Source of the DNA: a virus
Virus record (IMG/VR): IMGVR_UViG_3300009506_000002
Span: 32,001 to 96,000 of that record
Reading direction: 5' to 3' (one strand)
DNA length: 64,000 bases
Shown one piece after another: positions 43,850 through 62,587 of this stretch. Made by a program: the position numbers and the translations under genes. The notes beneath the pieces were generated by a model. The model was not told the DNA's origin. It did no database searches and worked only from the letters and a program-made list of their open reading frames with translations. Position 1 is the first letter of the stretch; every line of letters starts with the position of its first letter.

Positions 43850-44505
43850 TGTCAAAACTTGGAGATACCAGAAAGCCAACACCTGGAATTGGAACCATTC
43901 TTGACCCCATTCACAACCTCAAGACGATGGCACTTGACTTCGCGCGTCCGAACAAGTACATTGTGCAGCTATTCCCAAACCGACTGAAGATCCCTTTCCG
44001 TTCGGTGCTTGGCATCCCGTTTGATGAGGCGCTCTCGCTGGCGTGCAGCAACGCCGTGCTTCCAGGCAAAAATTACACCACATTCGATGATCGTCGAGGC
44101 TTGCCAAACTCGGCGAAGAAAGCTGGCGACTTGGTCTACAATGATGTGCAGCTAACCTTCCAGGTCTCTTCATTGATGATCGAACACAACGTCATCCAGG
44201 AATGGATGAACTTCATCTATGATGAGAATGGCGAGTTCTACAATTTTCACAAAGATTATAAGACGGATATACATATCATACAACTGAACCAGACACGCCA
44301 TCCGGTCAAGTATGTCAAGCTGATTGACGCTTTCCCGACTCAGATGGGCGACATTGCGCTCGGTTACGATATGAATGACCAGATTGAGACATTCAACGTC
44401 ACCTTCGCTTATCACCATTGGGAGTCAATCGATCTGACAAATGCGCAGGCCACTGTTCCTGACCTAGTCGAGCAGATGGTGAGTAAGATTCCTCAGCTAT
44501 TCTAG
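43849..44505 (+). CDS. gp54: Baseplate tail-tube initiator (tube fold)
   Basis: ARPNKY, AFPTQMG, FNVTFAYHHW. Confidence 0.75.
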   Translation: MSKLGDTRKPTPGIGTILDPIHNLKTMALDFARPNKYIVQLFPNRLKIPFRSVLGIPFDEALSLACSNAVLPGKNYTTFDDRRGLPNSAKKAGDLVYNDVQLTFQVSSLMIEHNVIQEWMNFIYDENGEFYNFHKDYKTDIHIIQLNQTRHPVKYVKLIDAFPTQMGDIALGYDMNDQIETFNVTFAYHHWESIDLTNAQATVPDLVEQMVSKIPQLF

Positions 44506-48555: not shown

Positions 48556-48996
48556 CTACCCCAATAAGATTATCGGTGTGCGTGTAAATATACCACATTC
48601 GAGTACTCTTGTCAAGTCTTCATTTGAGACCATCGACACGGTATCGATTATGGCAACGTGGAATGTTGCCAAGGCTGGCATGTAGAGACGTGGCAAGCGT
48701 GAACGGAATGATCTGACATTGAACACACGTTCTTGAGAAATGCCGTACTCACGAATGTACTCGCATCTCCGGCGCTCATCGAATGCAAACAGAGCCGCAT
48801 TGTACTTTTGAGCCAGTGCCACGGCTGCGGTGGTGTGACCAGTACGACGAGACATCTGCAATCGCATGACACGGAAGTCTGTCTCGAATGCTGGCAGTGT
48901 TCTGAGGAATTCTTCAGGCAGAGAGTAGTAGCTGTCGATATGCGCTTCTGCAAGAGCAAGCATCTGATCAGTCAGCGTTGGGATTGAGAGGTTCAT
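48556..48996 (-). CDS. Degenerate P-loop protein resembling a minimal terminase ATPase core
   Basis: LQMSRRTGHTT, VAIIDT, PIILLG. Confidence 0.55.
   Translation of the reverse strand: MNLSIPTLTDQMLALAEAHIDSYYSLPEEFLRTLPAFETDFRVMRLQMSRRTGHTTAAVALAQKYNAALFAFDERRRCEYIREYGISQERVFNVRSFRSRLPRLYMPALATFHVAIIDTVSMVSNEDLTRVLECGIFTRTPIILLG
48587..48615 (-). promoter_or_regulatory. sigma70-type promoter for gp59-gp32
   Basis: TTGACA-17-TATATT. Confidence 0.65.
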
Positions 48997-49229
48997 ATCG
49001 GCAGCTCCGCAGTTGTATCTTCGTTGTGTTCTTTCCTGATTAGTTTCAGGCGTCTGGCTTCAATCGTCACTTTCTCGAGCAACGTGCCAGAGATATATGC
49101 CTTTGATGCCTCGACGTCAATGTCGTTTTGCTCACAGACAGCTTGAATGGCGTCCAGATAGGTTGTGCCACGAGCAGCCAGTTTTTCGACCTGTTCTGCG
49201 AAGTGCTGCTTTGAGAACTTAATTGGCAT
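48993..49229 (-). CDS. gp33: Late transcription coactivator
   Basis: F..QVEKL..TYLDAI..CEQNDID..L.EKV..EA. Confidence 0.85.
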   Translation of the reverse strand: MPIKFSKQHFAEQVEKLAARGTTYLDAIQAVCEQNDIDVEASKAYISGTLLEKVTIEARRLKLIRKEHNEDTTAELPI

Positions 49230-49456
49230 CAGGACTCTTTCTCTTCGAAATACTTACCGTCCAGGCCGCAGATTGATCTGCGTGCTTCGTCACAGGTCAT
49301 GAAGAGACCTTTACCAGTGACAAGGAACTGGATGTGTGCGTCACTGTACGCATCCTTGTGGATGACTTTTGGTGCAACGCACACATCCAGCCTCTTGAGG
49401 CCGTTCGCCTCTTCTTTATGATGGGTACATTTTCTACAGATTTTTGGTTCACTCAT
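49229..49456 (-). CDS. Cys-rich hypothetical protein
   Basis: CRKCTH..C..C..CG; start at ATG overlapping the upstream stop. Confidence 0.6.
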   Translation of the reverse strand: MSEPKICRKCTHHKEEANGLKRLDVCVAPKVIHKDAYSDAHIQFLVTGKGLFMTCDEARRSICGLDGKYFEEKES

Positions 49457-49782
49457 CGTAGTGGTTCTCCGAAATAGCGCGTTGCGCATTTGATAGTATG
49501 ATCGACGTTGAAGCCTTCGTCGCGCAGCCCCAGGACAATGGCATAGCGAGCAGCCCGGGCCAGCTCTTCATCATGTGAGTCGAGGTCACCGAGCCACTTC
49601 TCTTCGAAGCGATCTGCCCCAATACTTCCACCATAACCGATCGCCTCACGTGCCTTTTTACCAATGTAGAACCAAGCTGCAAAGAGCTCTCCCCGAGTGT
49701 AGTCACGATAGTTGCGCGGCTCGAAAGCTGTTCCTTCTTTGATGCGTTTGCGCTGGCGCGATGTCATCTTACTGAAATCCAT
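49453..49782 (-). CDS. Hypothetical protein
   Basis: GGGAG RBS; operon packing. Confidence 0.65.
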   Translation of the reverse strand: MDFSKMTSRQRKRIKEGTAFEPRNYRDYTRGELFAAWFYIGKKAREAIGYGGSIGADRFEEKWLGDLDSHDEELARAARYAIVLGLRDEGFNVDHTIKCATRYFGEPLR

Positions 49783-49800
49783 AATATACTCCCTTGAGGT

Positions 49801-50340
49801 TTATTCTGCGCCACCCATGAATCGCTGCATGTGCTTAGCCTGTGAGATCGCGTCATCAAGAGCGTTATGGTAGGTACCGATGCGCTCGAATACAATATCT
49901 TCAGGTGCAAGTGCCTTCAGTGTACGGTAGCAGCGGTCGTTCCAGAACTTCCATGGCTGCTCGAGGCCTACTGCGCGGTACGCATGAGACATGATTGCGT
50001 TGTCGAACGCAGCTCCATTGCCCCACAGATAAACAGCCTTGCGGCGGTTGAACCACTCGGTAAATTGCTGCATGCCTGATTTCAGGGAGACATTTGAGTT
50101 CTTGGCTTCAACCAGTACCTTGCGGGCTTCTGGTGCCTGACCCATCCACCACTCGACAGTCTTCGGGTTGATGCTCAGGCCAGCTTCAACGCAGGATTCG
50201 GTGTTGATGGTAATGTAAAAGGTTTCTCCGATCTTGTCGGAAGTCGGGTCGAACTCGACTGCACCAATTGACAGGATCGCCGCAGTGGCAACGGTGTCAA
50301 GGGTTTCCAAGTCGACCATGATATGTTTCAATGGTGGCAT
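49801..50340 (-). CDS. DEDDh 3'-5' exonuclease (DexA-like)
   Basis: MVDLETL, WGNGAAFD, HNALDDA. Confidence 0.88.
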   Translation of the reverse strand: MPPLKHIMVDLETLDTVATAAILSIGAVEFDPTSDKIGETFYITINTESCVEAGLSINPKTVEWWMGQAPEARKVLVEAKNSNVSLKSGMQQFTEWFNRRKAVYLWGNGAAFDNAIMSHAYRAVGLEQPWKFWNDRCYRTLKALAPEDIVFERIGTYHNALDDAISQAKHMQRFMGGAE

Positions 50341-50363
50341 TGATACTCCTTATTCGTTATGAC

Positions 50364-50392
50364 AGTCTACACGAAAGAGGTATAACTGTCAA
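50364..50392 (-). promoter_or_regulatory. sigma70-type promoter
   Basis: TTGACA-17-TAGACT; AAGGAG RBS. Confidence 0.8.
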
Positions 50393-50616
50393 GTATTTTC
50401 TGATACCCACCCGATGGTAGTCCATTGGTGAACTGCGGACAAGAACTCGTTGAACTCAATGCTCCACTTTTGTGGTAGGAATTTCAACGGGTAGGCTTCA
50501 TCGTCCACCCTAACGCCATGCTCAACCAAGAAGTCGATTAACTCCTTTTCAGAGTTGAAAATGGCAAACGGCCTGCCCAAGGTTCTGTGCGGGTAAACGA
50601 AAACGTCTTTCGCCAC
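50389..50616 (-). CDS. Hypothetical protein
   Basis: ORF filling the gap; stop lies in the -35 box. Confidence 0.5.
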   Translation of the reverse strand: MAKDVFVYPHRTLGRPFAIFNSEKELIDFLVEHGVRVDDEAYPLKFLPQKWSIEFNEFLSAVHQWTTIGWVSENT

Positions 50617-50640
50617 AGGCCGATGTCGCGGGGATAAAAC

Positions 50641-50898
50641 TTAATCCTGCGCGGTCGGGAAGATTGCATCGTAGTCGTCGAGCAGGTCGTTGATTTCAGC
50701 TTCGACCTCTTCCTTGTTCTGCTCGAAGTAGATCTTCGCCAGTTTGCGCAGACGTGCTGGCTTCATACCAGTTGCATCCTTCACGCGGTCGCAGATGCCC
50801 TTCTGCAGGTCCTTCTCTGCTGCAACACGAGTCAAGCTCGCATTGAACTCCTGCAGCGCGCGGCCGATGATATCCTTGTCAGCATTACATAGTGCCAT
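50641..50898 (-). CDS. dsbA: Double-stranded DNA-binding protein (T4 DsbA-like)
   Basis: 85 aa helical; KGICDRVKD..GMKPARLRKLAKIYFEQ; near gp33. Confidence 0.75.
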   Translation of the reverse strand: MALCNADKDIIGRALQEFNASLTRVAAEKDLQKGICDRVKDATGMKPARLRKLAKIYFEQNKEEVEAEINDLLDDYDAIFPTAQD

Positions 50899-51288
50899 TT
50901 AACACTCCTTTTCTTTGATGAGTTTGTATTCGTATTTGTCAAGCTGTCCTCCCCATCCAGAGAAGCAGGTCAACACCGGTATGCCGTATGACTCGACAGC
51001 TTCAATTGCAGCCCTACGCGGAGGGAGGTCGAAGCCATTTGGTAGTTTTGCAGAAGCCGGGACAACAATTTTGCAATCCCATACTCGGAACTCGCTATGA
51101 TCTATTGGCTCCTCTCCCTCTCGGAGATGTGATGCCAGATAATTGAGGATGCGAGAAGCGGGTTTCAGCCATCGGTCGAAGTTACGGTCAACAGCATTTT
51201 CGAGCCATTCACCATTTGCTCCGGTAGCTTTGTAGTGCTCGTAGGCTAGTTCACGAGCGAGACATTCTTCTTGAGTGCGATCACACAT
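50899..51288 (-). CDS. Hypothetical protein
   Basis: Start revised to ATG 51288 (GGAG RBS). Confidence 0.6.
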   Translation of the reverse strand: MCDRTQEECLARELAYEHYKATGANGEWLENAVDRNFDRWLKPASRILNYLASHLREGEEPIDHSEFRVWDCKIVVPASAKLPNGFDLPPRRAAIEAVESYGIPVLTCFSGWGGQLDKYEYKLIKEKEC

Positions 51289-51706
51289 ATCTAAACTCCA
51301 GACCTGGTACCCAGGTTTTCTTGAACGCAAGGCAGCGCTCTTCGTATGGCACAAGTCCTTCTTTGCGAATTCGGACAATCACGTCCTTCTCGCCTTCAAA
51401 GTTTTCCAGCCAGTCCCAGAAGTCGCTGACTTTGCCATGATACATTGGGAGCAGGTCAACAAACGAACCGGCCTCGCGCTTGCCAGCATGGAACTCTTCC
51501 CAATATTGATCAGTCAGCTCCCAGGCTGTGATTGATGCGCTATTGAGGAACTCGTGATCCTTGTTGTTTTCAGGGTCGAGGATTTTTGATTCGATCTCGC
51601 GCTCGTCATCATTTGAGAACACTGATTTGGTGACAGTGTATCCGTACCAGATCAGGAATGTGAGTAGCGCAAGCGCGTAGATGTCATAAGGATTAGGTGC
51701 GTTCAT
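51281..51706 (-). CDS. Hypothetical protein with N-terminal membrane anchor
   Basis: IYALALLTFLIWYGY. Confidence 0.65.
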   Translation of the reverse strand: MNAPNPYDIYALALLTFLIWYGYTVTKSVFSNDDEREIESKILDPENNKDHEFLNSASITAWELTDQYWEEFHAGKREAGSFVDLLPMYHGKVSDFWDWLENFEGEKDVIVRIRKEGLVPYEERCLAFKKTWVPGLEFRYV

Positions 51707-52088
51707 CTTTAACTTGCTCCAAAGGGTAGTACACGCCAGAAGGTCCGGTCATGTAAAAGTCTTTCCGCTGTATGCGTAAACGAAACGTATTATACAGCAT
51801 TTCTTCGGCTTTGTCAATAGCCGCCATGTGGTGATCACCTGTCTGACAATGCAGGTCATGGGTTTCATCATCCCACTCGATCAGGGTCACTGGCATGTTG
51901 CACTGCCAGTCCTCACTCCACACCTGGAAGAGTTCTATTTCTGTCCTATTCTGCGCTGTCATTCTGTCCACAGATGCATTGTGAGGGAAGGCGCCCACAG
52001 TCCCTACAGAAACCAGTAGGAGTTTCTTCGCGTTGTCTATAACCGTATGGCTCTGCACCTCGTGCAATGCGCATCTGGTTGATTGCAT
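51693..52088 (-). CDS. Hypothetical protein
   Basis: Operon packing. Confidence 0.55.
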   Translation of the reverse strand: MQSTRCALHEVQSHTVIDNAKKLLLVSVGTVGAFPHNASVDRMTAQNRTEIELFQVWSEDWQCNMPVTLIEWDDETHDLHCQTGDHHMAAIDKAEEMLYNTFRLRIQRKDFYMTGPSGVYYPLEQVKDERT

Positions 52089-52089
52089 C

Positions 52090-52269
52090 CTAGGTTGCTT
52101 CCAGCGCTTCTGGAGGAACGTCGGTCATTGGTTGAACACTTACCAACTCATCTGCTATCATCTGTGGGATAGCTTTTCGTAGACGTGCGATCTCCTCAGG
52201 ATCGATTTTGCCGTGAGGATCGAAATGGCTATATCCGCCATTGATACGATCTTCGTGGTTGTCAGCCAT
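52090..52269 (-). CDS. 59-aa protein carrying a major-capsid (Gol-region)-like peptide
   Basis: RLRKAIPQMIADELVSVQPMT versus gp23 MVRRTMPSLIAHDIVGVQPMS. Confidence 0.65.
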   Translation of the reverse strand: MADNHEDRINGGYSHFDPHGKIDPEEIARLRKAIPQMIADELVSVQPMTDVPPEALEAT

Positions 52270-52606
52270 TGAGGATCTGCACTTCGCCTTCGCGAACGTC
52301 TTCTTGATCAGTGACAACTTTCTTGCCATCAGACTCGCCGACAACTTCACGCTCGACCACCGACTTCGGACCCTTGTAGTCCTTCAGGTCTTTTGTGGTG
52401 ATGATGCCTGAACCGTGTACCATTGCGTCATCCATGTCTTTCTCCTTTTCCGTAACTTCAATCCTGAATGTTGCTCCAGGGTGAGGGTGTGGCATTGGCT
52501 CAACTCCCTCAATAATCTCCGCAAAGCTGAAAGGTTGCAGAGGAGGCATGACCCATAAATTGACAGGAGGGAAGCGTAGGTCAGGCCAGTTGATCCTTAA
52601 TCCCAC
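52262..52606 (-). CDS. Hypothetical protein with weaker capsid-like segment
   Basis: FAEIIEGVEPMPHPHPGATFRI; AAGGAG RBS. Confidence 0.55.
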   Translation of the reverse strand: MGLRINWPDLRFPPVNLWVMPPLQPFSFAEIIEGVEPMPHPHPGATFRIEVTEKEKDMDDAMVHGSGIITTKDLKDYKGPKSVVEREVVGESDGKKVVTDQEDVREGEVQILNG

Positions 52607-52830
52607 CCCTTCTCCTTTGCCAGTTTGTCAACCATATCCTGCAGGTTCTGAACCCACGAGCTTCTCATTGTGAGAATCACACCTTGAGTGCAATCCTCGA
52701 CAACTGGTTCCCATTCGAACTCCAGACCGTCTTGATCATAGCACTCTTTGAGGACTTTTGCAAGTTGTTTCTTGTCGCGTACTTTGAGCGACAGTTCCCA
52801 TCTAACCGGGCTTTCAGTGACGGGTGTCAT
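52597..52830 (-). CDS. Hypothetical protein
   Basis: GGAGAGG before ATG 52830. Confidence 0.55.
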   Translation of the reverse strand: MTPVTESPVRWELSLKVRDKKQLAKVLKECYDQDGLEFEWEPVVEDCTQGVILTMRSSWVQNLQDMVDKLAKEKGWD

Positions 52831-53140
52831 ATCCGAACCTCTCCAGAACTGTACGCGCACGCGCACGAACGGAATCGTCAGCGCTCTTGAGATAATGCGT
52901 CCACCACATTTCGTTCTTCATGTACTGCTCGAACTCCTTGGAGTCAATTGGGAACATCATTTGGAGCTTGGTTGGTGTCAGGTCATGGAGAGTACCCTCA
53001 CGCGCAATATCCCGAAGCATCTCGACCATTGCGTCATGCTCTTCCAGAATGTCAGAGACGATGCCGTCAAAGTCGTCTGCGTTTGCAGTCAAACGATCAC
53101 GGAACTTCTGTGATGGCTTAGTCGTTTGCGATGACAAGTT
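52814..53140 (-). CDS. Hypothetical protein (start uncertain)
   Basis: Open frame ...KFRDRLTANADDFDGIVSDIL...; no clear ATG. Confidence 0.45.
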   Translation of the reverse strand, partial: NLSSQTTKPSQKFRDRLTANADDFDGIVSDILEEHDAMVEMLRDIAREGTLHDLTPTKLQMMFPIDSKEFEQYMKNEMWWTHYLKSADDSVRARARTVLERFGYDTRH

Positions 53141-53324
53141 GCACCCCTTCGATCTTTCTGTTCTCTTCGAGACGCCAAACAATAGCGGTTGAGATGTGGA
53201 ACTCTTCGAGTAGCTGTATGTATTCATCCTTGGTCAACTCGATGAACTCAAGGTTCTCTGCGCCGTGGCGCTGAATCAGCTCGATGACGCGATCATAGAT
53301 GCTGTGCTTAAATCTAACTCTCAT
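53118..53324 (-). CDS. Hypothetical protein
   Basis: AGGAG-6-ATG. Confidence 0.6.
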   Translation of the reverse strand: MRVRFKHSIYDRVIELIQRHGAENLEFIELTKDEYIQLLEEFHISTAIVWRLEENRKIEGVQLVIAND

Positions 53325-53640
53325 CTTGTTCTCCTGCTTTGGCTGGGATAGAAAAGTTGTCAGCATTACGGTACACGATGACCTTGGTTATACGAATTTC
53401 CTTCTCGCGAGGTGTAAGGTTTATCTCCTCGAGTACGTAGCCATGAAAGGTTTCCATGTCCTCACATCTATGGGCTTGCGCTTCACAGCTAAAGTCCTTC
53501 TCCTGTGGATCGGTACCCAGCAAGTTGGTGACTGTCAGCGTGCCTGGGTTCCAATACTTGACATTGAAGTCGTGCGCAGTCCTACCGTTGCCATAGCGAA
53601 TTGGCAACGACAGGAACTCAGAAATATGCAAGCATGGCAT
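53314..53640 (-). CDS. Hypothetical protein
   Basis: TGATG coupling to thyA. Confidence 0.6.
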   Translation of the reverse strand: MPCLHISEFLSLPIRYGNGRTAHDFNVKYWNPGTLTVTNLLGTDPQEKDFSCEAQAHRCEDMETFHGYVLEEINLTPREKEIRITKVIVYRNADNFSIPAKAGEQDES

Positions 53641-54485
53641 CAGACGGCCACCTTGCCTGTCAGCTTCGGATGCGAATGGTAGTTGATCAGTTGGATGTCG
53701 TCGAACTTGAAGTCGTCGATCTCCTTGCAGTCCGGGTTGAGTGCAACCAGAGGGAAGTGGTGCGGCTTTCTGGTCAACTGTTCATTGATCTGCTCAATGT
53801 GGTTCTCGTAGATGTGAGTATCGCCACCTGTCCAGATCAGCTCGTGTGCTTCCAGTCCTGTAACGTGAGCCACCATCTGCAGAAGCAGAGCGTAGCTGGC
53901 AATGTTGAACGGAAGCCCTAAGAAGCTGTCTACGCTTCGCTGGTACATTTGAAGTGAAAGTTTACCATTGATGTGGAAAAACTGGTAGAACGCATGACAG
54001 GGCGGCAGAGCACACTTTCCGTTGGCGACATTGACCGAGAAGGAATCTTCATCCACTGGCAACACTTTTGGATTCCAGGCCGAGCAGATCAAACGGCGGT
54101 CGTTCGGATTTGTGCGCAGCTTGTCAATGATGTTCTGTAGCTGGTCGATGCCAGAACCATCAAAGTTGCGCCATTGCGCGCCATACACAGGACCGAGGTC
54201 GCCGTTTTCATTGGCCCACTCATTCCAGATGCGGACGCCGTTGTCCTGCAGGTACTTGATGTTCGTATTGCCCGAAATGAACCATAGCAGCTCGTGAGCA
54301 ATCGACGGGAAGTGGGTGAACTTGGTTGTCAGCAGCGGGAATCCCTCTCTGAGGTTAAACCTCATCTGGGTTCCGAAAATTGCGTAGGTGCCAACGCCAG
54401 TGCGGTTGTCTTTGTATTCACCTTCATCAAGAATTCGTCTCACGAGATTGAGGTATTGGTACTCTGGGTGTTCCTTCTGATGCAT
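53640..54485 (-). CDS. thyA: Thymidylate synthase (no intron)
   Basis: RTGVGT, ELLWF, ALPPCH, YQRSVD.FLGLPFN. Confidence 0.97.
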
Positions 54486-54496
54486 CTAGGCGCTCC

Positions 54497-54820
54497 TTAC
54501 TTGCAGTCCATTTCGTCTTTGCTGGTTGGCACGAAGCCGATCTTGTCGTATGACGCAATTCGACCCATGCCAAAGAAGCCCGACACGGAGCCTACTGCAT
54601 CAGAGTAGACCACATAGCCACCGTCTGCGGTGCGGCAACCAATTTCAACCATCTGGAAGGTCTTGTCGCCGCCGCCGGTTGAGTATTCACTCGAGACGAT
54701 CTGCTTGCAGGTTGGTGGCTGGGTGCAGGTCAGTGTGCTGGCGTGGGCCTGTGGTGCAACTGCAACCGCCATGATTGCAACGATGGAGAATGCGGCTGCT
54801 GATATGATCATTTTCTTCAT
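54497..54820 (-). CDS. Secreted/periplasmic protein with four Cys
   Basis: Signal peptide MKKMIISAAAFSIVAIMAVAVAPQAHA. Confidence 0.7.
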   Translation of the reverse strand: MKKMIISAAAFSIVAIMAVAVAPQAHASTLTCTQPPTCKQIVSSEYSTGGGDKTFQMVEIGCRTADGGYVVYSDAVGSVSGFFGMGRIASYDKIGFVPTSKDEMDCK

Positions 54821-54854
54821 CTTTTCTCTCCTTAGAGTGTGGTTTCGATGGCCT

Positions 54855-55061
54855 TCATGAAAATGTATAAAAGCAATCGAGATCTTCATCAACGTAGAAC
54901 CCTAAGCTGTCAAGCAGGGCAATCTCCTCAGATGAATATTGGTTCGGGTTACCGACGTACATGACATCGTGCTCGAAGCTGTAATCACACTTGCCTTCTT
55001 TCTCGGCGATGATTGCCAGCGCGGCGACAAGTCTTTGAATGAGTGAAAGTTCTGCACTCAT
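54855..55061 (-). CDS. Hypothetical protein
   Basis: ATGA overlap with the ligase stop. Confidence 0.6.
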   Translation of the reverse strand: MSAELSLIQRLVAALAIIAEKEGKCDYSFEHDVMYVGNPNQYSSEEIALLDSLGFYVDEDLDCFYTFS

Positions 55062-56077
55062 AGCTTGTCGGTCTCCGCGAACCAAAATACACGCGCAGAG
55101 TTGGAGATGTGCTTGCCGACATCAGCCGCTGTAAAGCCATTCTCCTCCATCAGGGCCTGCTCTTCGTCAAGGATGTCGTTGACAACCCAACGCAGGAAAT
55201 CACCTGTGTTCTTACGCTCGATCTCGATACCATGCTGGCGCATGACATCAAGACCCTGATTCAGACGATTCTTGGTGACAGTAGCAGCCACAAACTCATG
55301 GATAGAGTTCATCTTCTCTACGTCAACCGCAGCAAGCGTCTTGACCTTTGAGGAAGAGTGGCGCTCGTCCTTGACCTTGAACCAGAACTGTGGGTCACGG
55401 TAGCCGTAGGACTCACACTTCCAGACGATGCCTTCGCCGGCGCCTTCCTTGTTGAAGTGCGCGCCGACAGGGCACTGGTCACCGACCTTTTGAGTCAACT
55501 CTGCAAGCTGGGCAGTAGCCAGCTCTGGACGATTGAAGTCAATCTCAATCTTGAATGTAGGGAACTGGCGGATGTGGTAGATGCCCATATCGTTGATCTT
55601 CTGAGTCCACTCAGGATCAGAAGTGACATCCTCAATTGAAGGGTTGCTCCAAGTGTCATCATCCAGGTCGCGGTAGGCGAAGATGACGAACATCTTGTCG
55701 AGGCCTGTGATTGCCACACCCTTCTGAATGTTGCCACCGCACCACTCACCGTAGACTGCCGTGCTGTATGATGCGCCATCCTTCAGCTCTGCAGGGAGAG
55801 CATCAATGAAAGCAGCAAAGCCAGCATTGTCGTCCTCTGGAGTGATGACACGCTCACGCGACTGTGCGTGAAGGTGGCCGCCAGCATCGAAGACTACCGC
55901 AGCGTTCGTGCCGTGCAGCTTGACGCTACCCTCAAAGACGAGAGTAGGATAGTCAGATGTATGTTCGTAGATTGGATTACCTGCGGCGTCTTTGCCTTTG
56001 AAGTCATGATGGAGCTGAACAGATCTTACAACGTCACGGAACTGACGGATTTTGGGGAATTTAATCATTTGGGTCAT
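55058..56077 (-). CDS. RNA ligase (Rnl2-like nucleotidyltransferase)
   Basis: Motif I KLHGTN, YGEWCG, FVIF, GEGIVW, FKVK. Confidence 0.85.
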   Translation of the reverse strand: MTQMIKFPKIRQFRDVVRSVQLHHDFKGKDAAGNPIYEHTSDYPTLVFEGSVKLHGTNAAVVFDAGGHLHAQSRERVITPEDDNAGFAAFIDALPAELKDGASYSTAVYGEWCGGNIQKGVAITGLDKMFVIFAYRDLDDDTWSNPSIEDVTSDPEWTQKINDMGIYHIRQFPTFKIEIDFNRPELATAQLAELTQKVGDQCPVGAHFNKEGAGEGIVWKCESYGYRDPQFWFKVKDERHSSSKVKTLAAVDVEKMNSIHEFVAATVTKNRLNQGLDVMRQHGIEIERKNTGDFLRWVVNDILDEEQALMEENGFTAADVGKHISNSARVFWFAETDKL

Positions 56078-56378
56078 AATCACCTCTGGTTAAGATAACA
56101 GTCAAGTTTTTGGCGATGTTCAATGCGCCAACAGGGTTCGCTGAATGAACACCGAAGCTAAAGCACTTTGGGATGAAATTTCCCATTTCGAGATCAGTTT
56201 CGATCATCCAGTTTACCACAATCATAGCGGTGTCATCTCCGCCCAGGTCATGGTCAAAACTGATATAGTCAGGGCAGCCTTCACTAAGCATGTAGGAAAT
56301 GGCTTCTGCAGAACTACGCAATATAGCGTCGAACACACCCTTTGGGTCACGATCATCGTCAATGTAAATTCGAATCAT
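56061..56378 (-). CDS. Cyclic-phosphate-processing receiver-like domain protein
   Basis: IYIDDDR.P, ISFDHDLG, VHSANPVG. Confidence 0.8.
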   Translation of the reverse strand: MIRIYIDDDRDPKGVFDAILRSSAEAISYMLSEGCPDYISFDHDLGGDDTAMIVVNWMIETDLEMGNFIPKCFSFGVHSANPVGALNIAKNLTVILTRGDYDPND

Positions 56379-56381
56379 GAT

Positions 56382-56424
56382 CAACTCCTGCGTGCTGCAA
56401 TACTACACGAACACGCAGGAGTTG
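56382..56424. repeat. 13-bp perfect inverted repeat covering promoter and RBS
   Basis: CAACTCCTGCGTG (56382-56394) / CACGCAGGAGTTG (56412-56424). Confidence 0.9.
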
Positions 56425-56428
56425 TCAA
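56400..56428 (-). promoter_or_regulatory. sigma70-type promoter inside the inverted repeat
   Basis: TTGACA-17-TAGTAT. Confidence 0.75.
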
Positions 56429-56432
56429 GTTT

Positions 56433-56735
56433 TTATTCGTCGTAGATGAACAGAACATCATCTTCAGTGATGACGGTACACTCCTTGTCGTCCCACGGTC
56501 CTGTCTTGCCAGCGTAGCCAGTGAACAGGATCCGGTCACCAACCTTGACAGACATCTCCTTGCGGGTAGTGCCATCAGGAAGGAAAGCGCCCGGGCCAAC
56601 TGCTACGATGGTGCCGGACTTTGGTGGATGCTCATGCTTCGGGGTATCCGGAAGGATGATACCGCCATCAGAGACGGTCTGCACCGGATCGAGAATCAGA
56701 GCAATACGGTCGAGGATGGGTCTTACGCGCGCCAT
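56433..56735 (-). CDS. groES: Co-chaperonin GroES (bacterial-like cpn10)
   Basis: RPILDRI, GGIILPD, GTIVAVGPG, VKVGDRILF. Confidence 0.92.
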   Translation of the reverse strand: MARVRPILDRIALILDPVQTVSDGGIILPDTPKHEHPPKSGTIVAVGPGAFLPDGTTRKEMSVKVGDRILFTGYAGKTGPWDDKECTVITEDDVLFIYDE

Positions 56736-57022
56736 CAGACAGTAAGTACCTTACCGAAATGCTTGGCATAGGCGTCTTCGATGAACTTCATCTCATTGAT
56801 GATCGTTGCATGGAACATCACCTGCGCAGACTTGAGCGGCAGGATGCGGGTTTCGCCCTTGGTCAGGTTGAAGTATGGCGCATAAGGAACCAGCTCCATT
56901 CCGCCCTTGCCATCAGGCATGCCGACAACCGGGTTCTCGATGACTACCTGTTCAGCAGTCTCTTCGACCAGGTACCCGACGAACTCTTCGCCGGTGATCA
57001 GTTTGAAAATTCGAATACTCAT
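56735..57022 (-). CDS. Sm-like fold protein
   Basis: IFKLITGEEFVG..VIENP..PYAPY pattern. Confidence 0.6.
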   Translation of the reverse strand: MSIRIFKLITGEEFVGYLVEETAEQVVIENPVVGMPDGKGGMELVPYAPYFNLTKGETRILPLKSAQVMFHATIINEMKFIEDAYAKHFGKVLTV

Positions 57023-57051
57023 TCGTTCTCCTTGTGGATGTAAAGGTACTA

Positions 57052-57080
57052 ATTGTACAGGTTTTGGGTTAGCTTGTCAA
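57052..57080 (-). promoter_or_regulatory. sigma70-type promoter
   Basis: TTGACA-17-TACAAT; AAGGAG. Confidence 0.8.
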
Positions 57081-57087
57081 GCTCTTT

Positions 57088-57300
57088 TTAGCTGGCAGCA
57101 ATCCAAGCCCAACCGATAAAGGCAACAATGAACCAGCGCCACGGGCGATAGACTCGCTGATAGCCCTTGCACATATCGCTGATCTGCTTCGGGCTGCCCT
57201 CATAGCCCCAGCCGAGTGTGGAATGAAGCATGAACGCAATAGAGCCGAATACAGCCAAGCCCCAGGCGATGATGTTCAGAAATGTGTTAAGCGTTTCCAT
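57088..57300 (-). CDS. Small membrane protein
   Basis: Two hydrophobic segments; AGGAGG RBS. Confidence 0.65.
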   Translation of the reverse strand: METLNTFLNIIAWGLAVFGSIAFMLHSTLGWGYEGSPKQISDMCKGYQRVYRPWRWFIVAFIGWAWIAAS

Positions 57301-57757
57301 GATAATCCTCCTTCATGATAACAATAGGGTCACCGCCATTGGAATCAAGAATGGCGTCGTTCTGTCCGTCACGCTGAATCGGGATACCCGCAGTTTGCAG
57401 CATATCGAGTTTGATGATTGCCACGCGATCCTGTTCTGACAGGAGAGGCGCGCCACACTCAGGGCAGCGATCATAGAGGTGATCAGCCATGTTCGCAAGC
57501 GTATCAGTCTGATAGCCGCATCCCTCGGTGTCACAGTAGAGCAATCCCTGCAGTGCCGGCGGCGTGAACAGCTCTTCGAGATATGAGCCAGTGATGTCGT
57601 TATCCCAGCCTAGCTCCTCATCGATCTCTGCGCCAGTTACAGCGTCGAACTTCCATGGGCCACAATAGATGAAGCCGTTGGCAATTTCAGACACCTTAAG
57701 GCGCATCTTTGTGCCAGCCAGGTTTCGTGTTACTTGTTGACCTACTTCGATAGTCAT
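57287..57757 (-). CDS. Hypothetical protein with zinc ribbon
   Basis: CDTEGC...CPEC. Confidence 0.65.
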   Translation of the reverse strand: MTIEVGQQVTRNLAGTKMRLKVSEIANGFIYCGPWKFDAVTGAEIDEELGWDNDITGSYLEELFTPPALQGLLYCDTEGCGYQTDTLANMADHLYDRCPECGAPLLSEQDRVAIIKLDMLQTAGIPIQRDGQNDAILDSNGGDPIVIMKEDYHGNA

Positions 57758-57759
57758 GA

Positions 57760-57984
57760 TTATTTGCTCCTACGCGGTTGATTGCAATCTGATGATACCC
57801 ACAGCAAAAAGCCTGGAAGCATGAAACCCCAACCAAACAAGGTATCGGTATGGTAACCTCCGCCAGTGATGGCAGAGTAGACGGCGTTGGCTCCTGCTAT
57901 GATGAAGCCAAAGAAACACCACACAAGGAGCAAACGCTCAAAGTATGAGGTCTCGTCATTGTAGCGCTTGAAAGGATTCTTCAT
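57760..57984 (-). CDS. Small membrane protein
   Basis: Two hydrophobic segments. Confidence 0.6.
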   Translation of the reverse strand: MKNPFKRYNDETSYFERLLLVWCFFGFIIAGANAVYSAITGGGYHTDTLFGWGFMLPGFLLWVSSDCNQPRRSK

Positions 57985-58133
57985 GAGAAGGACTTCACAA
58001 TGATATAGCCTAGAACACCGGAAGTGGTCACGCTAGATGCGAGAAACGATTTCAATGTTGGGGCTCCACTAAACAGACACCAGGTTGTGTAACCTGAGCC
58101 TGTGAGAATAAATCCTAATGCGACTGCGTCCAT
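57981..58133 (-). CDS. 50-aa membrane peptide (not in ORF track)
   Basis: AAAGGAG RBS; MDAVALGFILTGSGYTTWCLF...; ATGA overlap downstream. Confidence 0.6.
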   Translation of the reverse strand: MDAVALGFILTGSGYTTWCLFSGAPTLKSFLASSVTTSGVLGYIIVKSFS

Positions 58134-58167
58134 TACTTATAACTCCTTTCACTCACAGATTAACGTA

Positions 58168-58196
58168 AGTCTACACGAAAACGGGGCCGTTGTCAA
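58168..58196 (-). promoter_or_regulatory. Early promoter with 12-bp dyad
   Basis: TTGACA-17-TAGACT; AACGG-CC-CCGTT. Confidence 0.85.
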
Positions 58197-58546
58197 GTCC
58201 TGTTCCCATCAAGGGCTTTGTCTACAATGTCAGCGATTGCAGCCATGCCGCGCACAGAGTCGCCGTTGTACAGCATCAGAGTCTCTTCAATGCGGATGAG
58301 GGCTCGAAGGTTCTTGTCACGGTTTCTGGTGAAAGCATGTGCCTTCGCGTGCGCTTCAATGATATGCTTGCCCTTACGGCGGTCGCTGGTATAGTCGAGT
58401 ATCTTATCTCCCCACTTCACAGTCCAGTCGCCGTCAACCAGCTCCCCAAACTCCACGGAGACAACGATGTCATCCACCACACCAAACAGGTCGATGGTCG
58501 AGTTCTGACTTGCCTCTTCCCAGTTTGTCCAGATTACGTTCATCAT
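58193..58546 (-). CDS. Hypothetical protein
   Basis: GAGGAG RBS. Confidence 0.6.
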   Translation of the reverse strand: MMNVIWTNWEEASQNSTIDLFGVVDDIVVSVEFGELVDGDWTVKWGDKILDYTSDRRKGKHIIEAHAKAHAFTRNRDKNLRALIRIEETLMLYNGDSVRGMAAIADIVDKALDGNRT

Positions 58547-58699
58547 GTTTTCTTCTCCTCTTGTCTGCGCATGGTGTCAACGTGCGAGAACCACAACCCA
58601 TATCGATGCCACGTACAAAGCGGGTAAGGTTGCGCGCGTATGTGTTCATCTCGGGCATATACCATGCCTGTTTTGCCATGCGTGAGGCTGCTGCCGCGA

Positions 58700-58794
58700 G
58701 ACTAATTAGAGTTTGTCCTTATTGTGGTAAACGCGGCAAAGGTGGCAACATGACTAGGTATCATTTTGAGAACTGCTCTTTAGTCCAAGTTTAA
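58700..58794 (+). pseudogene. C-terminal remnant of a homing-endonuclease-like gene
   Basis: RVCPYCGKRGKGGNMTRYHFENC zinc-finger tail; opposite strand to neighbours; no catalytic domain. Confidence 0.55.
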
Positions 58795-58996
58795 TTCGCT
58801 TGACTTTGAAGCCACCCTCTTCGAACAGCACAACGAGCTGCTCCATTGGGATGTCAGTCACGACGTCGTAGTCATTAGGAACCTTGCCACTCAGAAGGTC
58901 GCGAACTGCGCCACCGACAATGAAGTTGTTGTCGGAGTGGGCATTCAGCACCATCAAGAAGGGCAGCAATTTGAAAGGGGCATGGTTTTCGAACAT
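58754..58996 (-). pseudogene. Truncated tRNA nucleotidyltransferase (CCA-adding / poly(A) polymerase head)
   Basis: FIVGGAVRDLL..PNDYDVVT; similarity ends about 65 codons in. Confidence 0.8.
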
Positions 58997-59028
58997 AATC
59001 AACTCCTGTTCACTCACTCAATAGTGAA

Positions 59029-59057
59029 AGTCTACACGAAACGGAACCTTTTGTCAA
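59029..59057 (-). promoter_or_regulatory. Early promoter with 12-bp dyad
   Basis: TTGACA-17-TAGACT; AAAGG-TT-CCGTT. Confidence 0.85.
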
Positions 59058-59257
59058 ACGATTTTTCTCAAATACTGGTAGGCTTCGAGCAGCTTCTTCT
59101 CAGAGAGATCGGTAAGCACTCGCAGGTTCCATTCCCAGCCAGATTTGCTGAAACTGCCAAGATCGCAGATAAGTGGGTTTATTGATTGGGTATAGGACGG
59201 AGAGCACGACTTGACCAGCTTTAGCAGGTCGCCCTTGTCGAGCTCTACCGGCACCAT
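59054..59257 (-). CDS. Hypothetical protein
   Basis: Operon packing; stop in the -35 box. Confidence 0.6.
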   Translation of the reverse strand: MVPVELDKGDLLKLVKSCSPSYTQSINPLICDLGSFSKSGWEWNLRVLTDLSEKKLLEAYQYLRKIV

Positions 59258-59258
59258 T

Positions 59259-59564
59259 TTACAGTGCGAACTTCTCGTTCAGGATGGCGATGACTTCTGG
59301 AGTAAGATCGCTCTTACCATAGTCACCAACACGATAGCTCGGGGTCTCTGTGCCATAAGAAAGGATGACTGACTTCACGACATCATCGATCTGGCGCTTG
59401 CCAAACTCTTTGATATAGTCGGTGATCTGGTTGTCATCGAGGTGGCAAACGTCACAGATCAAGAAGACTGCAATGTCTTCGACAGTGAAATACTGCTCGG
59501 GGAAGCGAATTTGGAAGCCCTGCTTCACCTGATCGTTTGCTGTTTTAACTTTAGTTGGTTTCAT
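59259..59564 (-). CDS. Hypothetical protein
   Basis: Start revised to ATG 59564 (AGGAG-6-ATG). Confidence 0.65.
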   Translation of the reverse strand: MKPTKVKTANDQVKQGFQIRFPEQYFTVEDIAVFLICDVCHLDDNQITDYIKEFGKRQIDDVVKSVILSYGTETPSYRVGDYGKSDLTPEVIAILNEKFAL

Positions 59565-59596
59565 GAATAACTCCTGTTCACTCACTCAATGGTGAT

Positions 59597-59625
59597 ATTC
59601 TAGCACAAAAGGTGCCGTTTGTCAA
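59597..59625 (-). promoter_or_regulatory. Early promoter with 12-bp dyad
   Basis: TTGACA-17-TAGAAT; AACGG-CA-CCTTT. Confidence 0.85.
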
Positions 59626-59882
59626 GCGGTATCTTTCATCAGCTCCAGGCATTGGTCAATCAGTGCAGGTACGGCAGCAATAGCAAGAACATCGCCTTCA
59701 ATGCCCTCATAGCTGTCGGTCACCTGAATCATGCGATCACCTAGTGATGAACACTCGGGCACATAGAAGTACCCGTCCTCGTCAGGCGTGGTGTCAATAG
59801 GTCCTCTATTGCCTACCCACTCCCAGCGCCCTTCCGTAATACCGTCACGTAGGGCTTCGAGCTGCTCGCGCGTGAATGTCAC
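59622..59882 (-). CDS. Hypothetical protein (TxGxW...AIAA.P family)
   Basis: GTGA overlap start; ITEGRWEW...AIAAVPALID. Confidence 0.6.
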   Translation of the reverse strand: MTFTREQLEALRDGITEGRWEWVGNRGPIDTTPDEDGYFYVPECSSLGDRMIQVTDSYEGIEGDVLAIAAVPALIDQCLELMKDTA

Positions 59883-60055
59883 TTCTGTTCTGCCTTCCTG
59901 CGCGCGCGTGCCATTTTGCGGCGGCAGTGTGAACAGTATCCAGCATCGAAACGTTTCTTGTTGTCCTTGATGTACTGGCGCAGGATCTCGGTCTCGCAAC
60001 CTTCAGTCTTGCACATAACGAATCCTGGCATTGGAACGGGAATCTTGTTGATCAT
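59879..60055 (-). CDS. 58-aa zinc-finger protein (not in ORF track)
   Basis: AGGAG RBS; CKTEGC...YCSHC, basic tail. Confidence 0.6.
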   Translation of the reverse strand: MINKIPVPMPGFVMCKTEGCETEILRQYIKDNKKRFDAGYCSHCRRKMARARRKAEQK

Positions 60056-60210
60056 TCAGAATCTCCTAATACTTGGTTGACAATGTGGCACGGATTGTCC
60101 TTGCCAGCACGAATATCTTTCAGAGCTTGTACGAGCTTTTCGTTGCGCTCATCAAGAGCGACTATCGCACCATTCAGCGCGCGGATGATGACGTCCTTAT
60201 CGTATTCCAT
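60052..60210 (-). CDS. 52-aa hypothetical protein (not in ORF track)
   Basis: GGAGG RBS; overlaps on both sides; MEYDKDVIIRALNG... Confidence 0.6.
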   Translation of the reverse strand: MEYDKDVIIRALNGAIVALDERNEKLVQALKDIRAGKDNPCHIVNQVLGDSE

Positions 60211-60437
60211 CAGTCCTCCATGTACTTGAGGAACTGGCGTGGGACCTCGATCATCTTGTTGTCACTTGGGATGTTACCGCCTGCACCAATGCGCAGGTCC
60301 TGCAGGAACAGGTCAAGGTTTTCACGCAGACGGCTTGCTCCGCCATCGTTTGATGAACCAGAGTATCCTGCGTCTGATTCCAGCTTATCCGCTGCACGCA
60401 AGACCCTGATCTTTATTCCATATACCGATTGAATCAT
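60210..60437 (-). CDS. Hypothetical protein
   Basis: Start revised to ATG 60437 (AGGAG). Confidence 0.6.
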   Translation of the reverse strand: MIQSVYGIKIRVLRAADKLESDAGYSGSSNDGGASRLRENLDLFLQDLRIGAGGNIPSDNKMIEVPRQFLKYMED

Positions 60438-60456
60438 AATGTACTCTCCTATTGTT

Positions 60457-60690
60457 CTACTGAATGTTGCTCTCGGGCAGTCTCTCGATGTCGATGAACT
60501 CGATCTGCTCGGGGTTGAATACACGGGTGATGGTGCTATCACCCATCTCAACCTCAAAGGAAATGCTTGGCAGGTCACGCATCGAAGCGATCCGAGCCAG
60601 GTACTTCTCTTTGTAGTATTTCTCGGACACTGGCGCAACCGTATGAGATTCACCTGCCAGTGTGACGACGGTAATCAAGATCATGCTCAC
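60457..60690 (-). CDS. Hypothetical protein
   Basis: Operon packing. Confidence 0.55.
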   Translation of the reverse strand: MSMILITVVTLAGESHTVAPVSEKYYKEKYLARIASMRDLPSISFEVEMGDSTITRVFNPEQIEFIDIERLPESNIQ

Positions 60691-60924
60691 TTATTCACCC
60701 CACTGCAGGCGACGCTTGCGAACAAGCTCGATTGACGCAATTGATGGGATGTAGAAGATGTAGTTGCTGCCATGCTTCTGAAAGCGCATGTAGTCCAGTG
60801 ATCCTGGGTCGAGCATCTTCTGATACATCGCATCTGCGTGATCTTCTTCCTGCAACTGTGAACGGAAAGTCTTTCCGTCAACTGTGCGAACTACGATTTG
60901 AAACTTTTTGACGATACGAACCAT
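60691..60924 (-). CDS. Hypothetical protein
   Basis: AGGAGG RBS; TAATG overlap. Confidence 0.6.
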   Translation of the reverse strand: MVRIVKKFQIVVRTVDGKTFRSQLQEEDHADAMYQKMLDPGSLDYMRFQKHGSNYIFYIPSIASIELVRKRRLQWGE

Positions 60925-61475
60925 TATTGGTTGTCCTCCTTCTTGATCAGGTCGTCGACACTTTCCCACTTGCTTTCAGTCTCATTCCAGACCTGTCGCA
61001 GGTACCTTGCGCCGTTTGTGGTGATGTACTCACCTTCACTCCAGGTGTCACCGCGATCGATCAGCTCGATGCCGCGGATTGAAGTATTTTCCCCGCTTTC
61101 ACCTGGGTGCTTGTGTTTGATTTCCAGTACACATCGGATGCGCAGGCCCCCTCGTCCAGTGAATCGGACAATGCTGCCTACCTTCAGGTTCTCGCGTGCC
61201 CAACGTTCACGGCGCTGGTCAGCATCCTGCTTCTTCTGGCGAGTCTCTTTGCGGATACGGTCGTCATCAGGACGAAGCATTATTGCCAGAGCGCCAACAT
61301 CGAGGTTGATCTCCAGAATGCGCTTCTCGAGCTTGCGCTTTTCCTCAAGAAGAGTCTTTTGTTGCGCACGCCAATCGGTTACGTTACGACCAAGTCTGCC
61401 AGTGGCAATGACTTCTGCGCAGCGCTCTTCTTTCAGGCGCTTCTCGCGCTCGTATGGTGATTCCCAACGTCTCAT
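60924..61475 (-). CDS. Hypothetical protein (coiled coil plus SH3-like C-domain)
   Basis: LKVGSIVRF motif after a charged helix. Confidence 0.6.
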   Translation of the reverse strand: MRRWESPYEREKRLKEERCAEVIATGRLGRNVTDWRAQQKTLLEEKRKLEKRILEINLDVGALAIMLRPDDDRIRKETRQKKQDADQRRERWARENLKVGSIVRFTGRGGLRIRCVLEIKHKHPGESGENTSIRGIELIDRGDTWSEGEYITTNGARYLRQVWNETESKWESVDDLIKKEDNQ

Positions 61476-61478
61476 GAT

Positions 61479-61856
61479 TTACTCTACCTCTCCGGTGTAG
61501 AATCCAATGCCTACAATTTTCTGAATCTCGACGACACTGTCGTTCAATTTGCCAATGCTCGAAAGGCCAGTGAACATAGACTTGTCGTTTTCAATGATTG
61601 ATTTAATCAATGCTCCCGCAGGGGTATCGAGAATTTTGATACTTGCGATGATATTGCCATCGTCATCCATGCGCATCGACTCAACGATGTGAGATGCTCT
61701 TGATGGATCATCTGTTAAACCATCAAAGGTGCAGACAGCCGGACCCTTGAACTCTTCGACTGCTTTGCGCAGTGTCTCCTCAGGATAAATGCGACCATAC
61801 GTTGACGTTGGAACGCCTGCCTTTGGAAGATCAATATTGTATTCTTTTGTCATCAT
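61479..61856 (-). CDS. Truncated, apparently inactive prohead-protease (gp21) paralog
   Basis: GRIYPEETL, RASHIV, KILDTPAG.LIK, GLSSIG align to gp21; no ELxHP His, no DxVxDPS. Confidence 0.75.
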   Translation of the reverse strand: MMTKEYNIDLPKAGVPTSTYGRIYPEETLRKAVEEFKGPAVCTFDGLTDDPSRASHIVESMRMDDDGNIIASIKILDTPAGALIKSIIENDKSMFTGLSSIGKLNDSVVEIQKIVGIGFYTGEVE

Positions 61857-62293
61857 TTACCCCAGTCGAGTTTCAGTGGTTCAACATAAACCAGATTTGC
61901 TTCCAAAGCAGGAATATTTATTGGCTTGCCATCAGGCCGCCAGTCTCCAACATCGTAACTCAAGGTCACGTGCGGGACGAAGTTGTCATACGCATGAGGG
62001 TAGCCTCTGCTTAACCATTCCTCATGGCGGCGCTGAATTCCAGGACTATCGAGTACCAGCACAAGGACATTGCCCGATTCAGTAGGCCATACCTCAAGAT
62101 ACCACGGCAGCGCAGTGAAATTGACTACTTCCCGGATATGTGGCGCTTCCGTGCGCTCCGTACAGTAAAGTACAGTGCTATGAAGCATTCCTTTAGGAAC
62201 CGGGTTAGGAACCTGAATTTCTCGCGCAAAGCGATGTAAGTTACCCATGGATCGGCCATTGTATTTCACTCCTACGTAGACGCCGTCAGTCAT
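61853..62293 (-). CDS. acb1: Anti-CBASS 2H phosphoesterase (T4 gp57B/Acb1 homolog)
   Basis: VPNPVP, HSTVLY, LEVW, LVLVLDS, PHVTLSY, EPLKLDW match T4 Acb1 as recalled. Confidence 0.92.
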   Translation of the reverse strand: MTDGVYVGVKYNGRSMGNLHRFAREIQVPNPVPKGMLHSTVLYCTERTEAPHIREVVNFTALPWYLEVWPTESGNVLVLVLDSPGIQRRHEEWLSRGYPHAYDNFVPHVTLSYDVGDWRPDGKPINIPALEANLVYVEPLKLDWGK

Positions 62294-62314
62294 GACGCGC
62301 TCTCAACATTGTTG

Positions 62315-62343
62315 ATTCTAGCACGAACGGCTCCTTTTGTCAA
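62315..62343 (-). promoter_or_regulatory. Early promoter with 12-bp dyad, for the acb1 operon
   Basis: TTGACA-17-TAGAAT; AAAGG-AG-CCGTT. Confidence 0.85.
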
Positions 62344-62353
62344 GTCTTTTTCT

Positions 62354-62587
62354 TCATCTGCCAGCTTGTAGCCACCGATAACCTGCGCATAACTCACAGA
62401 GAGCGGGAGCGGTTTGACCCCATATCAGTCTCACCGCAGAAGTGCCCCATCCACGGATGCGAGCAACAAAAGCATCCCGATCATCGTCGGCGACCATCTC
62501 GTTGTTCGCATCCCAGATGTAGCCACATTCATACCGAAACGGTGGCTTGTAAAGGGCAAGTGCTGCCGCTCGAAGTTCGTTTGTCAT
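62354..62587 (-). CDS. Hypothetical protein, possibly truncated
   Basis: PPFRYECGYIWDA..MVAD..RIRGWG then an atypical tail. Confidence 0.5.
   Translation of the reverse strand: MTNELRAAALALYKPPFRYECGYIWDANNEMVADDDRDAFVARIRGWGTSAVRLIWGQTAPALCELCAGYRWLQAGR

Follow-up and report, generated by a model that had tools for sequence, protein, structure and literature searches.

A gp21-fold pseudo-protease gene coupled to acb1, and two further short look-alikes of late proteins, in a predicted early region of an uncultured T4-like marine phage

The cyclic-oligonucleotide-based antiphage signaling system (CBASS) is triggered when the prohead protease gp21 cuts a loop of the CD-NTase, a reaction that needs the gp21 active site; that protease sensing is a main CBASS trigger was shown only recently (PMC12991175). 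A dead copy of gp21 would thus be silent. Truncated, cryptic paralogs of the prohead protease have been described in phiKZ-like phages (SPN3US gp117, 201phi2-1 gp206 and PhiPA3 gp143) and regarded as possible remnants (PMC5694885). T4 Vs.8, a homolog of the terminase ATPase, is toxic with EcAvs2 on co-expression, has been modelled in the terminase pocket of Avs2 and triggers Avs2, and Evans et al. suggested that proteins of this sort may have an anti-defence function and were later recognised by Avs2 (PMC13601566). The Gol region of the major capsid protein gp23 acts by binding EF-Tu, which is thereby made a substrate of Lit, and so promotes Lit cleavage (PMC3014915). Here we analyse a stretch of 64,000 nucleotides (the window; positions 32001-96000 of the 142,377-bp IMG/VR contig IMGVR_UViG_3300009506_000002, a T4-like phage with direct terminal repeats) in which a short gene resembling gp21 overlaps acb1, and two other short open reading frames (ORFs) recall gp17 and gp23. 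A first-pass annotation had taken these for dead mini-copies of the phage's own immune triggers, made early to occupy defence sensors without activating them. We find that the three are best read as independent accessory genes of recurring design, not as a co-selected arsenal, and that the acb1-coupled pseudo-protease is the best anti-defence candidate among them.

The pseudo-protease matched the profile phrog_207 (E 1.4e-9) and the gp21 of the same phage (E 3e-5 among 2734 ORFs, 28% identity). Its AlphaFold2 model, made from a 117-row alignment (pLDDT 89), could be superimposed on T4 gp21 (Peptidase_S77, 5JBL) with a VIA Z score of 12.0 and a root-mean-square deviation of 2.4 Å over 119 residues; the next-best structure match was a herpes protease (Z 7.0). 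The barrel and the GRIYP, SH and TPxG motifs are common to the pseudo-protease and T4 gp21. The triad columns H73/S126/D153, whose positions were anchored through the alanine-mutant 5JBL sequence and 24 full gp21 proteins, are gap/G/G in the pseudo-protease, which also lacks about the first 25 and about the last 60 residues of gp21. Whereas a gp21 of the T4 kind has the triad, 216 amino acids (aa) and a place in the head module, the protein described here has lost the triad, has 125 aa and stands behind an early-type promoter, 51 kb from gp21 and outside the head module. These data indicate that the gene encodes a protein of predicted gp21 fold without a catalytic triad, and the earlier description of a protease paralog that lacks catalytic motifs and is coupled to acb1, here through an ATGA overlap, was borne out. 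The upstream gene is an ordinary member of the Acb1 family (PF23474); its direct coupling to a pseudo-protease was seen here and in no other locus examined.

A profile of the pseudo-protease found exactly two genes in the genome, of 125 and 216 aa. The pseudo-protease scored 92 bits with its best relative, another short protein of this kind (hereafter mini-protease), against 21 bits with its own gp21, and in a quick IQ-TREE tree the own gp21 fell inside a starred clade of full proteases and the pseudo-protease outside it; the tree has many weak forks, and it places the paralog outside the clade of the own gp21 without establishing a single origin of the mini-proteases. The scores and the tree position together show that the pseudo-protease is not a fresh duplicate of its own gp21. 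The idea that the three ORFs are copies of the phage's own late genes was not supported; they are not recent copies.

We searched 1.84 billion representative proteins with the pseudo-protease (HMMER, E<=1e-3) and obtained 184 family representatives; among the best 150, 135 are no longer than 170 aa (median 134). A complete triad was found in none of these 135 short members, compared with 24 of 24 full gp21 proteins. The short members keep Y45 (130 of 135), S85 (118), H86 (124), G110 (134) and G131 (120), as well as P108, and have largely lost H73 (kept in 3), S126 (17), R128 (26), P158 (16) and S159 (4). The family thus keeps the core and drops the surround of the active site, which argues against trapping of a substrate loop such as that of the CD-NTase. 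Cultured members were reached through a search of viral proteins by fold: g109 of fHe-Yen9-04, in which the Ser motif is kept and the His motif is not, Serratia BF_0116, orthologs in Erwinia phages, and ORF386 of XacN1, which the text of the XacN1 paper does not mention (its virion list is a figure). The ratio of nonsynonymous to synonymous substitution (dN/dS) was 0.20-0.22 between g109 and the Serratia BF and Erwinia orthologs; between g109 and BF it was 0.20, compared with 0.19 for Acb1. Purifying selection, which the first-pass annotation had proposed to look for, was thus found in this cultured lineage, and the result extends to that lineage only. The cryptic paralogs of the SPN3US gp117 type are likewise second, truncated proteases beside intact ones, presumed inactive and without the C-terminal region (136-145 aa for the two whose lengths are given). 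As described in the literature, gp117 keeps Ser and Asp, whereas the protein here has lost the full triad, belongs to the T4 gp21 (S77) type and has a gene coupled to acb1. A weak match in the jumbo phage Eowyn (E 4e-6) may be a gene of the gp117 type.

The mini-protease lies amid small accessory or replication genes both in the seven metagenomic loci for which DNA was at hand and in two cultured phages; in one case it is beside baseplate genes, and in none is it in a head module. Linkage to acb1 recurs in one other lineage only, Eneladusvirus, where acb1 is 4.3 kb upstream of the mini-protease, near NadM and NAMPT. fHe-Yen9-04 (L102:20-9759) and Serratia phage BF (L103) have a conserved run of NadM/Nudix, NAMPT, Acb1, Sir2, PhoH and mini-protease, in which Acb1 is annotated as hypothetical and the BF mini-protease as a capsid maturation protease. 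The start of the closest relative, P0003, is overlapped by a 150-aa gene, the size of Acb1. At L007:8957-10459 a degenerate 347-aa gp23 paralog (E 7.5e-9) directly precedes the mini-protease, with RNase H and dUTPase around it and no head module near, and at L121:428-1328 a tandem pair of mini-proteases is followed by a Dda-like helicase. In PA5oct, Cr30, RSP15, Ahp1 and AS-szw only the full protease was found and no mini-protease; tblastn matches named hypothetical in Cr30, RSP15 and SP-15 proved to be the ordinary proteases of those phages. The motif P[NTS]xNGRIYP, sought across IMG/VR, turned up at 80 loci, each with a full-length protease; these served as gp21/gp23 controls. IMG/VR scans with single proteins and with acb1 gave no matches, and word-index protein searches with all three ORFs returned the query itself only.

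The P-loop ORF had been called terminase-like with a broken Walker A, and the name proved right at the level of the family. Its similarity to the own gp17 is negligible (1.7 bits; hhalign probability 32%). However, a family profile built without it found it at E 2e-10, it matched phrog_2586 at E 5.8e-4, and the family aligned with T4 Vs.8 at an hhalign probability of 98%; T4 Vs.8 in turn matches the TerL profile phrog_2 (E 1.7e-5). The ORF itself has no TerL profile match and no nuclease domain, its relatives alone matching phrog_2. By way of Aeromonas phages, members of the family were reached in Moon, JSF10, SPN3US and Phabio, and relatives occur in T4-like, T5-like and phiKZ-like phages. 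As in T4 Vs.8, phrog_1488 and phrog_2586, we have here a stand-alone terminase-ATPase-like domain (140-220 aa) amid accessory genes. The Moon gene is at the vs.8 position, and T4 vs.8 is four genes from vs.4 (acb2). The Atlas grouped the ORF with 30 clusters of unnamed phage proteins (140-160 aa for the highest-ranking), and its structure neighbours were its own family followed by superfamily 1 (SF1) helicase domains (TM score ~0.6). A single-sequence fold model of the ORF had a pLDDT of 44, too low for use, and searches of PDB sequences with the family profile gave nothing below E 0.2.

Both Walker motifs are altered, Walker A reading SRRTGHT (K->H) and Walker B IIDT (E->T), so the break reported earlier extends beyond Walker A. 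The GK(T/S) of Walker A is kept in five of nine Vs.8-like proteins; the SPN3US member likewise lacks the Lys, and two others have a loop that differs from GKT/S, so Walker A varies within the family. In T4 Vs.8, the sole tested member and an activator of EcAvs2, both Walker motifs are kept, whereas the copy here appears Walker-dead. ATP is part of the interface between Avs2 and terminase (PMC13601566), and since the Walker residues are lost, this copy could behave unlike T4 Vs.8. We also observed a strong extended sigma70-type promoter (48587-48615, minus strand) within the 3' end of the ORF, which would drive gp59 and gp32 and may constrain the sequence of the ORF.

Of the two coupled ORFs proposed as capsid peptides, one was upheld. 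A hidden Markov model (HMM) of the Gol region, built from 36 other gp23 proteins with the own gp23 left out, found the 59-aa ORF at E 1.1e-5 (2734 ORFs) as the sole match in the genome besides gp23, whereas its 114-aa neighbour scored 0.6 bits and was not among the genome-wide matches. Residues 21-50 of the ORF align to residues 90-119 of T4 gp23, an alignment that is weak taken alone (E 1.5). Its start was taken as the ATG at 52269, which overlaps the upstream stop; a GTG at 52350 was rejected, as it lies within the upstream gene. By these profile matches the ORF carries a 20-30-residue copy of the Gol region. It covers most of the Gol peptide (T4 gp23 94-122), although here as a stand-alone protein in which the conserved PTGxxF end is not kept, and we found no paper on stand-alone Gol copies. 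Because Gol binds EF-Tu and promotes Lit cleavage, a free copy made early would be expected to trigger Lit, unless it bound without promoting cleavage. Avs-type capsid sensors wrap a whole core fold (PMC13581612). EF-Tu or a capsid partner would be the more natural target of the Gol copy. Detached pieces of gp23 were also seen elsewhere: in the tRNA region of Aeromonas phage Ahp1 (L094:119-898) a 259-aa ORF, 2 kb away from a Vs.8-like gene, contains a Gol-like motif in its interior (E 4.8e-8), and XacN1 (AP018399) has two more pieces above the Pfam Gp23 cut-off, at 151294-151416 and 316358-316468.

We next consider whether the three genes belong to one system. The coordinates of the features are collected in Table 1. 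The head module (gp23, gp22, gp21, gp20 and gp17) is complete within the window, and the statement that the intact parent genes lie there was correct. Five T4 late promoters, TATAAATA, are present in the window (0.46 expected), all at or before 42806. On the minus strand from 48.6 to 63.9 kb there are ten TTGACA-17-TA(T/G/C)xxT sites, with perfect TTGACA and a 17-base spacer. Taken together, the promoter consensus agrees with the sigma70-driven region described before and indicates that this is probably an early-type region. All four ORFs have intact frames and gene-like codon usage. The three genes lie ~3 and ~9 kb apart, with genes for thymidylate synthase, RNA ligase, GroES, an exonuclease and dsbA between them, and their nearest promoters differ. 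None of nine other mini-protease loci has a Vs.8-like gene, and a capsid-derived gene was found in one only (L007); Ahp1 combines a Vs.8-like gene with a Gol motif, and no mini-protease was found there. An all-against-all search for further late-gene fragments in the genome gave tube-like and other ordinary paralogs only. The claim of one arsenal is not supported, given the differing promoters and the lack of co-occurrence, and only the pseudo-protease of the three fits a decoy role.

Table 1. Positions of the three genes, their neighbours and promoters, and the intact late genes (window coordinates)
Feature	Position	Strand	Remarks
gp23, major capsid protein, intact	7207-8478	-	inside window
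gp21, prohead protease, intact (H73, S126, D153)	9537-10187	-	late promoter region
gp17, large terminase, intact	15086-16672	-	inside window
Vs.8/phrog_2586-family terminase-ATPase-like protein (P-loop ORF), 146 aa	48556-48996	-	between gp33 and gp59
sigma70-type promoter, nearest strong one upstream of the Vs.8-like ORF	50364-50392	-	consensus
59-aa ORF with gp23 Gol-region copy (residues ~21-50)	52090-52269	-	Pfam Gp23 E 1e-3
114-aa ORF, gene-like, codon score 0.136	52262-52606	-	no Pfam/PHROG match
sigma70-type promoter, nearest strong one upstream of the Gol-copy ORF (~3.8 kb off)	56400-56428	-	consensus
Pseudo-protease, 125 aa, predicted gp21 fold	61479-61856	-	ATG overlaps acb1 stop (ATGA)
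acb1, anti-CBASS phosphodiesterase, both HxT motifs (from translation)	61853-62293	-	PF23474 E 3.5e-29
sigma70-type promoter, TTGACA-17-TG-TAGAAT, before acb1 and pseudo-protease	62315-62343	-	11/12 consensus, extended -10; consensus match only

The source is an uncultured, T4-like, marine phage. One public run, from a marine sediment metagenome, carries the stretch unbroken and with zero differences, and may be the source of the contig; no sequence variants were found in that one DNA run. The early-type region that holds acb1 also contains two RNA ligases, of families PF09414 and PF09511, along with a gene for a cREC receiver-domain protein (55058-56083, 56061-56384 and 62584-63723), which suggests an RNA-repair cluster. 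The promoter-bearing intergenic segments 59014-59057 and 59573-59627 also turn up elsewhere, in contigs of similar depth, as would be expected if an early-promoter cassette were repeated. A tail-tube paralog at 43849-44505 (plus strand) shares 28% identity with 12923-13417 (minus strand) and sits in an oppositely read baseplate block, as a gp54-like protein would. Beyond the window, at genome positions 106054-110365, three ORFs have in common a short near-identical segment (<=86% over 21 residues), probably a common leader.

The explanation that we prefer, and to which we give an even chance, is that the three genes encode unrelated accessory, non-catalytic binders that compete with the full-length proteins for a partner in a host or phage conflict. 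Each gene would have branched off long ago from that of a conserved late protein and then lost catalysis (in the case of Gol, the rest of the protein), and each product would be made early, be soluble and work by binding, vying with the full-length protein for one of its partners in a host-phage or phage-phage conflict. The pseudo-protease, presumably co-transcribed with acb1, would most likely dampen a defence set off by the head protease. It could cap the phage's own gp21 outside the prohead, or it could sit on a receptor that recognises the gp21 fold; trapping of the CD-NTase loop would be less likely, the surround of the active site being what the family has lost. The Vs.8-like pseudo-ATPase may block one terminase sensor while being seen by another, as T4 Vs.8 is, and the Gol copy would most likely bind EF-Tu or a capsid partner. 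A more specific claim, that the widespread gp21 pseudo-proteases of 110-150 aa form an unrecognised anti-CBASS class that acts upstream of signal synthesis, is made early with Acb1, and caps gp21 or shields the CD-NTase loop, we consider unlikely. Several points weigh against the binder explanation. Partner binding of all three proteins is a prediction from sequence, and early expression one from promoter consensus. The residues kept in the short mini-proteases may be purely structural, the hits were picked by likeness to the query, and selection was measured in relatives, not in the genes of this phage. No relatives of the Gol ORF were found in protein and IMG/VR searches. acb1 lies 184 kb from the mini-protease in XacN1 and is absent from all seven metagenomic mini-protease loci with DNA (one of them just 692 bp), and its closeness here may be chance, since anti-defence genes abound in the early part of large phage genomes.

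The three genes might alternatively be assembly modulators, that is, dominant-negative or chaperone-like pieces that time the phage's own gp21, gp23 and gp17, much as T4 Inh restrains gp21, or poison co-infecting T4-like phages, with no link to immunity. In the pseudo-protease the fold is whole while the active site and the C-terminal tail are lost, and in SPN3US this tail is inferred to guide the protease to the prohead (PMC5694885). The pairing of mini-protease and degenerate capsid paralog at L007 would also suit such a role, as would the many T4-like phages without a mini-protease, which is expected of an accessory gene. However, early-type promoters with no late promoter near are a poor fit to a helper of the phage's own assembly, the direct coupling to acb1 also speaks against it, and we regard this alternative as unlikely. 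The coordinated early arsenal of the first-pass annotation, in which the products occupy the sensors of CBASS, Lit and Avs but do not switch them on, appears to us distinctly unlikely, although three known trigger classes are echoed, one gene is coupled to acb1, a dead gp21 copy would indeed not trigger a CBASS that needs the active site (PMC12991175), and the Vs.8-like copy, without the Walker residues kept in T4 Vs.8 and with ATP in the Avs2 interface, might bind without activating. Inert occupation is at odds with the activation of EcAvs2 by T4 Vs.8 and of Upx by Walker-B-dead terminases (PMC13601566), and with the finding that the partner of Gol is EF-Tu rather than Lit and that Gol promotes cleavage (PMC3014915). 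Avs sensors wrap whole core folds, which a peptide of 30 residues is too short to fill, the three genes do not co-occur across loci, and the fourth ORF is no capsid look-alike. We think it improbable that barrel, P-loop and peptide were reused for functions unrelated to the partners of their parents (ligand binding, scaffolding or translation control through EF-Tu). Low identity to the own parents (28% for gp21, negligible for gp17), SF1 helicase domains as the neighbours of the P-loop ORF outside its family, and the five Vs.8-like proteins with GK(T/S), which may be active NTPases, would agree with such reuse, but a published model puts Vs.8 in the terminase pocket of Avs2, which it triggers (PMC13601566), so the terminase-like surface of Vs.8 is still read as such. 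That the genes are decaying duplicates without function is very improbable: Ali et al. considered that SPN3US gp117 might be a remnant (PMC5694885) and the Gol ORF is a singleton, but intact frames, gene-like codons, uniform length and a conserved core in 135 clusters, a dN/dS of 0.2 and a confident fold largely refute decay for the pseudo-protease family.

Cryptic protease paralogs and Vs.8 have already been published, so that two of the three parts have precedent. We found no paper on a phage counter-measure at the protease-sensing step of CBASS, nor on a decoy role of such look-alikes. The dead gp21 copies make up a large family, under selection where this was measured; with one copy coupled to acb1 and with cultured members (g109, BF_0116 and XacN1 ORF386), it offers a cheap and direct test. 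Some of its genes carry a wrong annotation, either capsid maturation protease or scaffolding protein. A naturally Walker-dead Vs.8 variant bears on whether ATP binding separates activators of Avs2 from blockers, a question left open in PMC13601566. If the anti-defence role fails, these are ordinary accessory genes. If the anti-CBASS reading is true, then, together with the Walker-dead Vs.8 and the stand-alone Gol copy, it would mean that dead pieces of the most conserved late proteins find a second use in large phages as counter-sensors.

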